Both the position numbers and the translations under genes were made by a program. Below, piece after piece: positions 711 through 64,000 of a stretch of 64,000 nucleotides of DNA. Position 1 is the stretch's first letter, and each line of letters opens with the position of its first letter. This DNA comes from Escherichia phage p000v, in the sequence record NC_055781.1; one strand, written 5' to 3'. A model generated the notes under the pieces. It was not told the origin of the DNA. It searched no databases and saw only the letters and a program-made list of their open reading frames with translations.

Positions 711-715
711 ATGTG

Positions 716-734
716 GGGACCTTCGGGTCCCTTT
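716..734 (+). terminator. hairpin GGGACC-UUCG-GGUCCC followed by short T run
   Basis: Perfect 6 bp stem with UUCG tetraloop directly after stop of 444-710 ORF. Confidence 0.5.
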
Positions 735-14720: not shown

Positions 14721-14933
14721 GAGAAATTGATTTAGGCATTTTCTGAGAGGTGCTTATGCATGACGAACATCCCGACTTCTGAAAATTTCGATAAAATCCG
14801 TAAAGGCAAAGCAGAAAGAATGAGACGTTTTAAAGAGTCTTATGATAAAGCTAAAGCCGAAGGAACTATTACGTACAAGCCCATTCGATTTAAAAGTTCA
14901 AATGAGCCTTTGTACGGTGTACTATGTGGATAG

Positions 14934-14957
14934 GAACTCTTCGGAGTTCCTTTTTTG
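14934..14957 (+). terminator. rho-independent terminator GGAACUC-UUCG-GAGUUCC + U6
   Basis: 7 bp stem, UUCG loop, TTTTTT tail. Confidence 0.6.
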
Positions 14958-21562: not shown

Positions 21563-21567
21563 AGCAA

Positions 21568-21586
21568 TGGGACTTCGGTCCCATTT
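21568..21586 (+). promoter_or_regulatory. hairpin UGGGAC-UUCG-GUCCCA (terminator or RNA stability element)
   Basis: 6 bp stem with UUCG loop, only 3 T after. Confidence 0.4.
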
Positions 21587-32218: not shown

Positions 32219-32552
32219 TCTCGATGATTTAAATCTAGAAATCGTTGATGAATCCCCTTCTTCGGAAGGGGAAGACATTCGCAAAGAACGAGTGTTTAAT
32301 GAATCTCTTAAAATTATCCGTTCAGCAATGGAAAATGTCATTCAAGAGATTCTGATTACACTTGAAGATGGTTCTCATCATATAGTCTATATTACAAAAC
32401 TAGACTGGGTTGATGGTAAAATCGTAATGGACTTTGCAGTTCTTGACCAGGACAGAAAAGCAGAACTTGCACCACATGTTGAAAAATGTGTTACAATGCA
32501 AGTACAACAAGCTTTTAATGAACGAACCAAGAAAAAATTTAAATTCTTTTAA
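32211..32552 (+). CDS. 40: gp40-like protein (position of T4 gene 40)
   Basis: Synteny between uvsX and 41; ATG overlaps uvsX 3' end. Confidence 0.6.
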   Translation: MNNLDDLNLEIVDESPSSEGEDIRKERVFNESLKIIRSAMENVIQEILITLEDGSHHIVYITKLDWVDGKIVMDFAVLDQDRKAELAPHVEKCVTMQVQQAFNERTKKKFKFF

Positions 32553-34004: not shown

Positions 34005-34010
34005 TAAAAA

Positions 34011-34029
34011 GGAGACTTCGGTCTCCTTT
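34011..34029 (+). terminator. hairpin GGAGAC-UUCG-GUCUCC + UUU
   Basis: 6 bp stem with UUCG loop right after gene 41. Confidence 0.55.
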
Positions 34030-39618: not shown

Positions 39619-39627
39619 ATAATTTAA

Positions 39628-39651
39628 GGAATCCTTCGGGATTCCTTTTTT
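39628..39651 (+). terminator. rho-independent terminator GGAAUCC-UUCG-GGAUUCC + U6
   Basis: 7 bp stem, UUCG loop, TTTTTT. Confidence 0.65.
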
Positions 39652-48108: not shown

Positions 48109-48531
48109 ATGGCTTTTAAAGGTTTTGAAGTTGGTAAGAAATATCGTATTATCAAAGGTCAAGAAGATAATTTCTTGAGAATTCTTAATACGACTGGTAA
48201 ACGTCTTAACACTACTCTGCATACAGTTTTATTATCAAGAGATTTTATTGTAGAAGAGATGATTGGCTACGGTGTTTCAATGATTGCCGCTGAAACCGAT
48301 GGACCTGGACGTACAATCATTAGTATGCAAGGTGATATTCTAATTTACGGTGCAGAATTTAAATTCTTTGAAGAAGTTCAGGAACCAGATACAGCTGTCG
48401 ATTTCAAAAAAGGCTCTATAGAATTTGTTGATGGTTCGGTGATCGTATCAGGCGATGTGGTCATTACAGTTAAAAGTGAACAAGGGCGTTTGGCTGCAAT
48501 TGATGCACTTCAGAAAATTAAATTTAAATAA
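48109..48531 (+). CDS. hypothetical protein
   Basis: ORF track 140 aa. Confidence 0.5.
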   Translation: MAFKGFEVGKKYRIIKGQEDNFLRILNTTGKRLNTTLHTVLLSRDFIVEEMIGYGVSMIAAETDGPGRTIISMQGDILIYGAEFKFFEEVQEPDTAVDFKKGSIEFVDGSVIVSGDVVITVKSEQGRLAAIDALQKIKFK

Positions 48532-48548
48532 GGGCTTCGGCCCTTTTT
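48531..48548 (+). terminator. hairpin AGGGC-UUCG-GCCCU + U5
   Basis: 5 bp stem, UUCG loop, TTTTT. Confidence 0.55.
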
Positions 48549-50415: not shown

Positions 50416-51212
50416 TGAATTATCGTAAAATTTATGATAAACTTATCGCTGCGGCTAAAAACCGCAGCACTATTCCTAATTATACTGAAACTCACCATAT
50501 TTTGCCTAAATCTATGGGTGGGAGTAATGCTAAATCAAATCTAGTTAAAATGACCCCTAGAGAGCATTTTATCGCCCATTTATTGCTTTATAAAATTCAT
50601 AAGAACCGTTCTATGCTTATGGCTATTAGAGCTTTTTACATGGGAGCTAGAAATTCTAGAGATTATGATTGGCTTAAACAAGAATTCTCTAAAGAGCACT
50701 CTAGATTTATGAAAGAATGGATTGCTAAAAATGGCAACCCATTTAAAGGTAAAAAACATACTAAAGCAACAAGAGAATTAATGTCACATATTGCTTCACA
50801 ACGTATAGGCGAATTAAATCCGTTTTATGGTAAAACTCATACGCAAGAAGCAATAGATAAAATAATACAGGCCAACAAGTTATCTTGGGAGAATGGGCGA
50901 AAAGCACCTGTAAAAACAAAAGAACACCAGGATAAAATAACTAAATCAAGAATGGAAACATTTAAAACAAAAGGATTTAAACCATACACTCCTAGGTCGG
51001 AAGAAACTAAAGCTAAGACTAGAGAGTTGTATAAATCTAAATATGAAAGAAGGCCTATAAGAATCACAAGTGTAAAAACAGGTGAAACTATTGATTTTAA
51101 CTATCTTTATGAATTAAGGGAGTATTTAGGTATAGGGTCTTCTAATATATTGAAAGCATTAAATAATCCTAACAGAACCTGCAAAGGTTATAAAATGTGT
51201 TGGATGTCCTAA
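50415..51212 (+). CDS. HNH homing endonuclease with NUMOD3-like repeats
   Basis: ETHHILPKSMGG...N...REH HNH motif; repeated NPF(K/Y)GK.HT motifs; start overlaps gene 39 stop (TAATG). Confidence 0.8.
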   Translation: MNYRKIYDKLIAAAKNRSTIPNYTETHHILPKSMGGSNAKSNLVKMTPREHFIAHLLLYKIHKNRSMLMAIRAFYMGARNSRDYDWLKQEFSKEHSRFMKEWIAKNGNPFKGKKHTKATRELMSHIASQRIGELNPFYGKTHTQEAIDKIIQANKLSWENGRKAPVKTKEHQDKITKSRMETFKTKGFKPYTPRSEETKAKTRELYKSKYERRPIRITSVKTGETIDFNYLYELREYLGIGSSNILKALNNPNRTCKGYKMCWMS

Positions 51213-51235
51213 GCTCCTTCGGGAGCTTCATTTTA
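51211..51235 (+). terminator. hairpin AAGCUCC-UUCG-GGAGCUU followed by T-rich run
   Basis: 7 bp stem with UUCG loop. Confidence 0.5.
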
Positions 51236-55836: not shown

Positions 55837-55859
55837 GGGGACTTCGGTCCCCTTTTTTT
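55837..55859 (+). terminator. rho-independent terminator GGGGAC-UUCG-GUCCCC + U7
   Basis: 6 bp GC-rich stem, UUCG loop, TTTTTTT. Confidence 0.65.
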
Positions 55860-59630: not shown

Positions 59631-59707
59631 GTGCCCTAGCCTTAGGATTTCTCGGTGCAATAGCTGCACTAGTGATTTGGCTGTATTGGTTGGACAAACA
59701 TGATTAG

Positions 59708-59726
59708 GGAGCTTCGGCTCCTTTTT
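59708..59726 (+). terminator. hairpin GGAGC-UUCG-GCUCC + U5
   Basis: 5 bp stem, UUCG loop, TTTTT. Confidence 0.55.
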
Positions 59727-61817: not shown

Positions 61818-62105
61818 ATGCTTACTAAAATCAAAGAAAATCCTGCCACTGAACTTGTTATTCGTTGTGAAGAACTTGCAGAGCTTTATCAGGTTAACCG
61901 AGAAGTGTGTCGTAGTGTTATCGTAGATATGGCAGACGAAGTATGTTCTCGTATTCCTTTTAGTGTCGATTTCAACCATATGAAGCCTGGTGAAATCACT
62001 ATCGTCTTTGGTTCTGACTATACTGAAGAACGGGCTCTTAATGTCCTAGAATATGAAATGTCATTCTTTGACATACAGGATTACATTGATAGTTATAAGG
62101 AATGA
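61818..62105 (+). CDS. hypothetical protein
   Basis: ORF track 95 aa. Confidence 0.45.
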   Translation: MLTKIKENPATELVIRCEELAELYQVNREVCRSVIVDMADEVCSRIPFSVDFNHMKPGEITIVFGSDYTEERALNVLEYEMSFFDIQDYIDSYKE

Positions 62106-62106
62106 T

Positions 62107-62268
62107 ATGAGTCATAATCTTCAGAACGTAGTAGAGGCCGAACGTGAGCGTGAGGCTTTAATCTATAATGAACTATTAGTTCCATTCTTGGCCTTACACT
62201 CGTATGAACAGGAAGACTACATTGATTACGTTAAAAGCGTAGAAAAAGCCGTTTACAATCAACACTGA
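62107..62268 (+). CDS. hypothetical small protein
   Basis: ATG right after upstream stop. Confidence 0.35.
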   Translation: MSHNLQNVVEAEREREALIYNELLVPFLALHSYEQEDYIDYVKSVEKAVYNQH

Positions 62269-62314
62269 TAATGGTACTATATCCATATCAACTAAGTGGA
62301 ATGAATAAAACGTT

Positions 62315-62587
62315 ATGAATAAAGACATTGAAATCGTACGCGAAATTATTACTATTGCTTCTATTTTGATTAAATTCTCTAGGGAAGATATTGTTGAAGA
62401 CCGAGCAAGTTTCATCGGATTCTTGAATGAGATTGGAATTAAAAAAGATGGTCGGCAGCTAAATCAGAATTCGTTCAGAAAACTAATTACAAATTTAACT
62501 GCCGAAGAAAAGAAAACACTGATTAGTGAATTCAATGAAGGTTTTGAAAATATTTATCGTCATTTAGCGATGTATTCTAACAACTAA
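62315..62587 (+). CDS. asiA: anti-sigma-70 factor AsiA
   Basis: MNK.I..VREIIT.ASILIKFSREDIVE.RA.FI.FLNEIG....GR.LNQNSFRK matches recalled T4 AsiA; 90 aa. Confidence 0.9.
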   Translation: MNKDIEIVREIITIASILIKFSREDIVEDRASFIGFLNEIGIKKDGRQLNQNSFRKLITNLTAEEKKTLISEFNEGFENIYRHLAMYSNN

Positions 62588-63247
62588 TTATTTAGCCCTT
62601 CCTAGTATTCGGACCGCTTGGTTGCATATAGCTGCTAAGCGATCTTCCTCAAGTATATTACTCCCCTTATACCAATACATCGTCACAGTTCCAGCGTAGA
62701 TGTTATCCAAATTAAAGTATGGACAACTATACATATAAGAAAGTTCGGCAGTCTTAGATTTTGTAGGCAAAAATGCAAATTCTGATTTAGACGAGAAATG
62801 ACGGCCACTTAAATGAATTATATATTCATTGGCCGTTTTATCCACCGGGAATCCCCCAAGGGACTTTTCAGAAATTGTGCTAGGTAGTTTGCCTTCATAA
62901 GCTATAAGGTCGACGAAATAATTTAAGTTTTTAGGTCTGAAAGAATACACAGCACTAAAATCTGCACCAGATGAGATATGAACTATTTGCAGTTGTTCTA
63001 GAGCCGCAGATTCAAAACGTAAAGCTCGTTCTTTTTGGATTATTTCAGTATAAGTATCATACTTAGATCTTACATAATAATCCAGCAAAATACTTCCTTT
63101 GTACCATATTAGTGCCATTAGGAACAAAAGAATAATTACCGCTACTCGGGACATTAAAACCTTTCCAGTAGCGTTATCTTTGAAAATACGATCTAGCAAC
63201 CCAAATAGAATATCACTAGGCGAAAATGACACTTTTGGTGTTGCCAT
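62588..63247 (-). CDS. t: holin T
   Basis: Minus strand; MA.P..SFSPSDILFG.LDR.FKDNATGKVL.SRVAV.ILLF ... matches recalled T4 holin t; 219 aa. Confidence 0.9.
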   Translation of the reverse strand: MATPKVSFSPSDILFGLLDRIFKDNATGKVLMSRVAVIILLFLMALIWYKGSILLDYYVRSKYDTYTEIIQKERALRFESAALEQLQIVHISSGADFSAVYSFRPKNLNYFVDLIAYEGKLPSTISEKSLGGFPVDKTANEYIIHLSGRHFSSKSEFAFLPTKSKTAELSYMYSCPYFNLDNIYAGTVTMYWYKGSNILEEDRLAAICNQAVRILGRAK

Positions 63248-63256
63248 AATACCTCC

Positions 63257-63808
63257 TTACTTAAAGATATTTATAATCGCTTTGATAATAGATTTGTTTT
63301 CAAGGTCAGGGAATTTAGGGAATTCGCCGCCAAGATGTTCATGTTTTTCTAAAAGGGCAAAGAATTTTTTGAGCTCTTTAAATTTTCGTTTTTCTTCTCT
63401 ATTAGCAACCTCTGCGTCAATAAGAGAACTTAAAACACTGAATAATTTATAGAGTTCATGAATTTTCTTATCACGTTGAACTACACGTTTATATGCTTCA
63501 TCTTCCTTCCACCCGTCGTCGGTCCAAAGGTCAAATTCACCAGGTTCTTCTGTAGTAACATTTTGAAGAGCACCTGGAGTGTCAATAACAATTTTTTGCT
63601 TATCATATGTCCATACTGTTTTTCCTCGATGGTCTTCAACATATACCCATTCTTGCTCGCGTTCGTCAAATATAACAGCATAGCCTTCTTTAGGGTCTAA
63701 AGGTTTTTTTGGTGTCGAATGAGCCGGAAATCCTACGCCTTTTAATGGTTTATAATTTTCTTCTTTGTAAAATTCTTTAGTGTCAAAATAATAGTGATAG
63801 AGTTTCAT
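63257..63808 (-). CDS. 38: long tail fiber assembly/adhesin protein gp38
   Basis: Minus strand; MK.YHYYFDTKEFYKEENYKP.KG.G.PAHST.KKPL.PKEGYAV.FDER matches recalled T4 gp38; 183 aa. Confidence 0.85.
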   Translation of the reverse strand: MKLYHYYFDTKEFYKEENYKPLKGVGFPAHSTPKKPLDPKEGYAVIFDEREQEWVYVEDHRGKTVWTYDKQKIVIDTPGALQNVTTEEPGEFDLWTDDGWKEDEAYKRVVQRDKKIHELYKLFSVLSSLIDAEVANREEKRKFKELKKFFALLEKHEHLGGEFPKFPDLENKSIIKAIINIFK

Positions 63809-63839
63809 ATTATAAAAAGGGACCGAAGTCCCTTCTCCT
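63809..63839 (-). promoter_or_regulatory. split ribosome-binding site of gene 38: GGAG, hairpin GGGAC-UUCG-GUCCC, then AUG
   Basis: On minus strand GGAG lies about 25 nt 5' of ATG; the intervening 14 nt form a perfect tetraloop hairpin. Confidence 0.5.
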
Positions 63840-64000
63840 TATGCTAAACGAACGATATAGTTAAAAGCAACGTTTTTAACTGTGTTTTCTGTATTTCCTG
63901 TGGCATTTACAGTTATTGTATGTCCATGGGAACCAATTGCAACAGTATGAGAATGAGCACCAATACCTACCGAATGGGTATGAGCACCAATACCCACAGT
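63840..64000 (-). CDS. 37: long tail fiber distal subunit gp37, C-terminal end (5' part outside window)
   Basis: Minus-strand translation ...[49 protein letters not shown] with His-x-His repeats typical of T4 gp37 C-terminus. Confidence 0.8.

Follow-up and report, generated by a model that had tools for sequence, protein, structure and literature searches.

The junction between genes 37 and 38 of Escherichia phage p000v probably carries an orthologue of the 'split' (non-contiguous) translation initiation region of T4 gene 38, in which the 30S subunit would pair with UAAGGAG while a hairpin lying between this Shine-Dalgarno (SD) element and the AUG is looped out, the split arrangement accommodating a hairpin that appears to be older than itself. 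The anatomy of the junction, its orthology, the stability of the hairpin, its conservation with one covarying pair, and a constant unpaired tail of 6-8 nt are directly established. A split ribosome-binding site at gene 38 is already known, and the DNA analysed here (a stretch of 64,000 nt from sequence record NC_055781.1, hereafter the window) holds a sequence variant that preserves the structure.

Read on the minus strand, positions 63806-63845 are GCA UAA GGAG AA GGGAC UUCG GUCCC UUUUUAUAAU AUG, with AAA as the next codon. The open reading frames, the sequence itself and constrained folding gave the following features for the junction and its two flanking genes.

63839..64000, minus strand: 3' end of gene 37, long tail fibre distal subunit, C-terminus; runs off the window (ORF list)
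63841-63839, minus strand: gene 37 stop codon UAA, running into GGAG to give UAAGGAG (sequence)
63835..63841, minus strand: SD element UAAGGAG, with the core GGAG at 63838-63835; overlaps the gene 37 stop
63817..63834, minus strand: full hairpin AAGGGAC-UUCG-GUCCCUU, made of the 5-bp core stem (63832-63828 with 63823-63819) and two A-U extension pairs
63832-63819, minus strand: 14-nt hairpin core GGGACUUCGGUCCC, GGGAC-UUCG-GUCCC, with the UUCG loop at 63827-63824
63809..63816, minus strand: A/U-rich tail UUUAUAAU, 8 nt unpaired, from the hairpin to the AUG (constrained folding)
63808-63806, minus strand: gene 38 AUG (sequence, ORF)
63257..63808, minus strand: gene 38, T4-type distal tail fibre assembly chaperone, 183 aa (ORF, tblastn)

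The hairpin starts 5-7 nt past the gene 37 stop. All 7 nt of UAAGGAG are complementary to the 3' end of 16S rRNA (CUCCUUA), and the 7-bp duplex of this element with ACCUCCUUA was computed at -9.0 kcal/mol. The window holds eight copies of TAAGGAG, four of which (4/8) are placed 5 nt before a start codon. At gene 38, GGAG and AUG are separated by exactly 26 nt; this spacer contains no second SD motif, and positions 63818-63809 (UUUUUAUAAU) are devoid of any purine-rich, SD-like motif. The earlier note had put GGAG about 25 nt before the gene 38 AUG on the minus strand and had judged it too distant for normal initiation. The measured spacer of 26 nt and the lack of an SD-like motif at the canonical distance agree with both statements, and the interval that it gave, 63809-63839, corresponds exactly to the SD through the last base before the AUG.

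The gene 38 product was 100% identical to gp38 of Aplg8 and ATK47, and ~66% identical to T4 gp38 (tblastn). Gene 38 was placed between gene 37, whose match in T4, Mizar and others carries the annotation gp37 long tail fibre distal subunit, and holin t, the 219-codon ORF that comes next, so that the order 37-38-t is as in T4. Its AUG is the first ATG, GTG or TTG after the in-frame stop (ORF list), and the N-terminus that it opens, MKLYHYYFDTKEFYKEENYKP / MKLYHYYFDTKEF, is common to T4 gp38 and more distant homologues. Another start codon for gene 38 was ruled out on these grounds, no in-frame ATG, GTG or TTG being found upstream after the stop and the N-terminus being conserved.

The last 800 bases of the window matched 206 phage records, the best being Escherichia phages Mizar, LH01 and others at 98-99%; the identity to T4 over the same bases was 76.5%. 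The last 24 kb were ~97% identical to Mosigvirus phages, e.g., SHSML-52-1 and mobillu. The exact variant of the gene 37/38 junction is shared with phiD1, which is classed as Tequatrovirus, and that of Aplg8 differs by one base. The pairing of a Mosigvirus backbone (40000-64000) with a Tequatrovirus junction variant (63200-64000) suggests that the tail-fibre module may be a mosaic between genera.

A motif scan for the late-promoter consensus TATAAATA over 63257-64000 returned one copy:

63268..63275, minus strand: late-promoter consensus TATAAATA, inside the last codons of gene 38, serving holin t (motif scan)

There were no other copies in 63257-64000, including between the end of gene 37 and gene 38, and in T4 the sole TATAAATA between gene 36 and t lies at the same place. 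As no late promoter was found between genes 37 and 38, gene 38 would be read from the gene 37 transcript, on a polycistronic late mRNA. The UUCG loop occurs on the minus (coding) strand only, which fits a role at the level of RNA. Further downstream, at 63247-63275 on the minus strand, TATAAATA precedes UAAGGAGG, a sequence overlapping the stop of gene 38, after which come 5 nt and the holin t AUG; stop and SD overlap here as they do at the start of gene 38, but in a canonical, unsplit site.

Co-transcription of genes 37 and 38, together with a gene 37 stop that is itself part of the 7-nt SD in an overlap (UAA-GGAG) that is invariant in T4-type junctions, could also be read as translational coupling, whereby ribosomes ending at the gene 37 UAA remain held by UAAGGAG until they restart at the AUG, 30 nt further on, with a minor share for de novo binding of 30S subunits across the hairpin. 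We consider such coupling unlikely, given a hairpin of about -10.7 kcal/mol and 26 nt between the stop and the AUG, and given that the published T4 gene 38 model and the gene 25 experiments favour direct initiation on split sites. In some relatives, moreover, the hairpin parts the stop from a normal SD, which suggests insulation between cistrons rather than passage from one to the next. The GGAG beside the hairpin was also considered as a cleavage site of the phage endoribonuclease RegB, which cuts intergenic GGAG (PMC3014915). This reading was rejected as highly improbable because late transcripts with intergenic GGAG are all reported to be resistant, both in vivo and in vitro (PMC3014915), and genes 37 and 38 are late.

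The hairpin is more than a chance fold. The isolated 14-mer had a folding energy of -7.5 kcal/mol, and the 46-nt context one of -15.7 kcal/mol, compared to -7.2 ± 2.0 kcal/mol in dinucleotide shuffles (z = -4.2), with 0 of 200 shuffles as stable. An Rfam scan of 63000-64000 (E <= 10) found no curated family covering the hairpin element; the matches there, to snoRNA and miRNA models, were at chance level (12-21 bits vs gathering scores of 42-80).

The minimum-free-energy stem extends from 63837 to 63814 and comprises 10 bp, with two A-U pairs and then G·U, A-U and G·U pairs added beyond the core. It pairs the GAG of the SD with the U-run, so that the unbound mRNA would partly hide the SD, and in the folding model the SD is free only if this weak lower stem opens. 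When UAAGGAG was forced to be single-stranded in the window, a 7-bp hairpin of -10.7 kcal/mol was obtained, which begins at the base next to the SD and leaves the 8-nt tail UUUAUAAU; with the hairpin looped out, this tail is what would effectively separate the SD from the AUG. Two further claims made from the sequence beforehand, that the spacer forms a stable hairpin and that this hairpin would give a functional SD-AUG spacing, are thus borne out by the energy of the 14-mer, the z-score in context and the in silico fold with the SD free. The picture of a short hairpin drawn there holds for that constrained fold, and needs correction for the minimum-free-energy stem, which is longer and reaches the GAG of the SD.

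Freeing the SD required 3.6 kcal/mol for the window; the range over eight other variants was 1.4-4.9 kcal/mol. With UAAGGAG held free, all nine T4-type variants formed a hairpin of 6-7 bp that abuts the SD with no gap, at -9.2 to -11.9 kcal/mol. The unpaired tail measured 6-8 nt in 9/9 of these variants, despite raw spacers of 22-26 nt. The energies of UUCG and UUCU loops were not separated by ViennaRNA. Sequestration of the SD raises the question of whether the extended stem (63837-63814) acts as a brake that keeps the chaperone gp38 low, with no enhancing effect, as in minimum-free-energy folds the U-run of the window pairs with the GAG of GGAG, and part of the SD is paired in T4, GRNsp7 and ESCO47. 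A brake is nevertheless quite doubtful. The extension is made of only G·U and A-U pairs, and the 1.4-4.9 kcal/mol needed for opening compares with the -9.0 kcal/mol gained by the SD:anti-SD duplex, so the weak lower stem should not block use of the SD; without the core hairpin, the SD would sit 26 nt from the AUG, which would be worse for initiation.

In all, 29 gene 37/38 junctions were read, mostly from GenBank phage records. Searches of IMG/VR with gp38, and with a degenerate pattern from the gene 38 start, gave only two contigs, and the set was therefore built from GenBank; the T4 junction and 21 further junctions were tabulated from GenBank and IMG/VR. The T4 junction reads UAAGGAG A GGGGC UUCG GCCC UUCUAAAU AUG, i.e., UAAGGAG-A-GGGGCUUCGGCCC-UUCUAAAU-AUG, with a 22-nt spacer. 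The hairpin was kept in 23/23 of the T4-type and related junctions examined, and UAAGGAG, including the UAA-GGAG overlap, was invariant in 21/21 T4-type junctions. Close T4-type gene 38 homologues (in Tequatrovirus, Mosigvirus and Gaprivervirus) always had UAAGGAG, the hairpin and a short A/U-rich tail, and an SD-like motif between the hairpin and the AUG was found in none of the T4-type variants read. Because the adjoining end of gene 37 hardly varies either, conservation of GGAG is no independent sign of selection.

Within the stem, pair 4 is G-C in T4, JK45, VR7 and others, G·U in Mizar and Aplg8, A-U in the window, mobillu, phiD1 and SA79RD, and C-G in ESCO47. Over 12 distinct junctions, the counts were six for G-C, three for A-U, two for C-G and one for G·U. 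In the alignment of these 12 junctions, 96.4% of cells were paired, and the covariation score was 0.279 vs 0.135 in shuffled alignments, a value reached by 0 of 500; every measure dropped when the partner columns were slid along the alignment. The comparison points, modestly, to a stem that has been kept in the relatives by compensatory change, as it concerns a single pair varying on both sides among closely related phages.

The loop is UUCU instead of UUCG in SA79RD (L007), BEU50 (L019), ST0 (L018) and IMGVR_UViG_3300030021_000020 (L003), with the stem unchanged. These UUCU-loop junctions sit just upstream of locus position 301 / 1501, and ST0 is also short by one tail U, giving a 25-nt spacer. 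The occurrence of a UUCU loop in four phages indicates that the special tetraloop is not essential. Regulatory annotation at the gene 37/38 junction is absent from the T4 GenBank records. The record of Mizar carries a 'ribosome_binding_site' GGT (L002, 777-779) in the 3' arm of the hairpin, which is not credible and misses the upstream GGAG; this 3-nt annotation looks like an automatic call.

The same junction layout is found in T4, as had been proposed before the comparison and as is described for T4 gene 38 (Gold 1981/1988, cited in PMC3014915 and PMC7297116). The T4 initiation region and that of the window share the position at the junction, UAAGGAG over the stop, a C(UUCG)G-capped, GC-rich hairpin directly after the SD, the lack of an SD near the AUG, and a short A/U-rich tail. 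The window differs from T4 by its spacer (26 nt vs 22 nt), one extra A before the stem, stem pair 4 (A-U vs G-C) and pair 1 (G-C vs G·U), and its tail UUUUUAUAAU, which has a more terminator-like U-run than the T4 tail UUCUAAAU; the gp38 proteins, as noted above, are just ~66% identical.

In T4, the 22-nt SD-AUG spacing of gene 38 is reported to be cut to 5 nt by the intervening RNA structure, and that of gene 25 from 27 nt to 11 nt by a structure between the SD and the AUG, with destabilising mutations lowering initiation (PMC3014915). According to PMC3014915, the gene 25 case was confirmed by Malys and Nivinskas using lacZ fusions and DMS probing; PMC7297116 credits the gene 38 case to Gold 1988 and words its positive effect as one that 'was suggested'. 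Mutational and probing evidence is detailed for gene 25 only (PMC3014915, PMC7297116), and no report of a mutational test or experiment specific to gene 38 was found in the accessible literature. Bridging at T4 gene 38 is the accepted reading, which draws on its sequence and on the analogy with gene 25.

The two T4 systems follow the same principle, an SD 27 nt off being brought to ~11 nt by a stem-loop at gene 25 (Malys and Nivinskas 2009). They differ in that gene 25, which lies outside the window, is another gene with an unrelated hairpin, and has reporter, mutational and DMS-probing support that gene 38 apparently lacks. The gene 25 structure is conserved in close T-even phages and absent from distant relatives. 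In Escherichia coli thrS and rpmE, the ribosome also accommodates a stable hairpin in the initiation region (PMC3936740, PMC7297116), but there the hairpin is a protein-bound regulatory operator and parts upstream single-stranded elements from the SD, not the SD from the AUG.

Hairpins of this kind are not confined to gene 38. The window contained 12 hairpins with a C(UUCG)G cap and a stem of at least 4 bp, compared to 0.74 ± 0.83 expected from shuffles. Ten of the 12 are on the plus strand, and one besides that of gene 38 is on the minus strand:

715-732, plus strand: C(UUCG)G hairpin
14932-14951, plus strand: C(UUCG)G hairpin
21566-21585, plus strand: C(UUCG)G hairpin
32253-32272, plus strand: C(UUCG)G hairpin, inside an ORF
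34008-34029, plus strand: C(UUCG)G hairpin, with AAAGGAG as its 5' arm
39626-39647, plus strand: C(UUCG)G hairpin
48530-48545, plus strand: C(UUCG)G hairpin
51211-51228, plus strand: C(UUCG)G hairpin
55837-55852, plus strand: C(UUCG)G hairpin
59706-59723, plus strand: C(UUCG)G hairpin
44173-44160, minus strand: further C(UUCG)G hairpin

Eight of the ten plus-strand hairpins begin at -2 to +7 nt relative to the stop codon of the ORF before them. Several of the hairpins in the window are followed by TGCTTTA (MotA-box-like) or GTTTACA (early -35-like), forming hairpin-plus-promoter cassettes. The gene 38 hairpin is alone among the 12 in having a start codon less than 10 nt downstream and an SD on its 5' side; for the others, the next start is 21-97 nt or more away. 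Its UUCG loop is closed by C-G on a GC-rich stem, and it is intergenic and on the transcribed strand. In these features it is like the intercistronic hairpins of T4 of Tuerk et al. 1988, with their UUCG loop, C-G closing pair, GC-rich stem, intergenic position and over-representation, as related in PMC8948821, which describes CUUCGG hairpins in T4 as stabilisers and as stops for reverse transcriptase. We infer that the gene 38 hairpin belongs to a T4-family class of post-stop-codon C(UUCG)G hairpins.

The hairpin was also found in relatives in which it bridges nothing. In seven relatives it was kept behind the gene 37 stop and was itself followed by the SD, at a normal spacing of 5-8 nt. Two of them, both Citrobacter phages, have a distant T4-type gene 38: the junction of CkP1 reads UAA-UUUA-GGGCCUUCGGGCCC-UU-GGAG-AAAAU-AUG, and that of Moon UAA-UAGAUU-GGGGCUUCGGCCCC-UCU-GAGG-AAACU-AUG. 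In the other five, RB18, EcS1, fGh-Ecl01, KpM198 and ABTNLS3, gene 38 is an unrelated T2-type adhesin. All of these T2-type phages (5/5) had a C(UUCG)G hairpin 2-6 nt past the gene 37 stop, then AAGGA, GAGG or GGAGG at a normal distance of 5-8 nt from the AUG:

L024, 646-677: T2-type hairpin/SD junction
L025, 275-307: T2-type hairpin/SD junction
L026, 793-825: T2-type hairpin/SD junction
L027, 864-902: T2-type hairpin/SD junction
L028, 630-660: T2-type hairpin/SD junction

The C(UUCG)G hairpin was absent at the junction of the Krischvirus Cognac (L029, 1148-1189). EcS1 (L025) has, around 807-950, two tandem copies of the T2-type gene 38 with a 142-nt spacer between them; the folding energy of this spacer plus 10 nt on either side is -41.5 kcal/mol.

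The common order is stop, hairpin, SD, AUG, and comparison of the junctions indicates that the order stop/SD, hairpin, AUG of the T4 clade, including the window, is the derived one. The split arrangement appears to be younger than the hairpin, for which a second role besides bridging is probable. As it is also present where the SD lies downstream, bridging would not be its only role, and perhaps not the original one. The bridging reading of the earlier note, judged on these junctions, appears incomplete, the hairpin being present at the junction independently of the split arrangement. From the same sequence comparison, the split site would be an accommodation to a hairpin kept for another reason. 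The other role is most likely protection or definition of the 3' end of the gene 37 mRNA, or partial termination, and intercistronic insulation is also a candidate.

These observations lend weight to the view that the hairpin serves above all the 3' end of the gene 37 message, acting as a barrier to 3'-5' exonuclease and/or as a leaky intrinsic terminator that lowers the gene 38 transcript, with bridging incidental. Phages with a downstream SD and an unrelated gene 38 have this same hairpin after the gene 37 stop, the post-stop position of 8/10 plus-strand C(UUCG)G hairpins in the window is in keeping with it, and so is PMC8948821 (citing Tuerk 1988), in which CUUCGG hairpins of T4 are reported to stabilise and to stop reverse transcriptase. 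The core stem in the window also runs directly into UUUUU, although those U residues can pair with the upstream AAGAG. Against this, efficient termination would abolish gene 38 expression, given the lack of a late promoter from the hairpin to gene 38. A scan of 62000-64000 for consensus terminators found none, and the U-run is not conserved: the tail of T4 and JK45 is UUCUAAAU, and UUCUAAAU or UUCUGAAU follows the stem in T4, JK45 and VR7. A strong terminator at the hairpin is thus unlikely; a leaky one may operate in this phage. A purely 3'-end function would also leave unexplained how gene 38 is translated without an SD near its AUG. We rate this view a little below an even chance; it is partly compatible with the split-site model.

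A broader proposition, on which we are evenly divided, is that the hairpin is old and independently selected across the tail-fibre operon of Tevenvirinae, whether a T4-type chaperone or a T2-type adhesin comes next. The split site of the T4 clade would then have arisen when the SD fell 5' of the hairpin, possibly at the joint of a cassette exchange, and the primary function of the hairpin would lie outside bridging: it might define or stabilise the gene 37 mRNA at its 3' end, insulate the two cistrons, or serve as a recombination landmark.

Under the split-site model, which we prefer for the initiation of gene 38, the gene would be read from a late polycistronic gene 37-38 mRNA, without a promoter of its own. 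The 30S subunit would pair with UAAGGAG, overlapping the gene 37 stop, and the next 18 nt would fold into the hairpin of 7 bp, capped by C(UUCG)G and looped out of the path of the mRNA. An AUG that is 26 nt off in sequence would thereby end up ~8 unpaired nt from the SD, which is in the working range. By analogy with T4 gene 25 and with the published proposal for T4 gene 38, the ribosome may tolerate the folded hairpin, and the hairpin may enhance initiation.

The non-contiguous ribosome-binding site of gene 38 has been a cited example since the 1980s, and its presence here carries little weight as a discovery. The value of the window and its relatives is comparative, as natural variants provide ready material for testing gene 38 by mutation, which seems never to have been done. 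On offer are four states of stem pair 4 (G-C, G·U, A-U and C-G), UUCG and UUCU loops, and spacers of 22-26 nt that retain a tail of 6-8 nt. A small addition is the contrast in the order of hairpin and SD among relatives, which may merit a systematic survey; the relatives with the hairpin first and the SD after it imply that the hairpin is not there solely for bridging the SD and the AUG.
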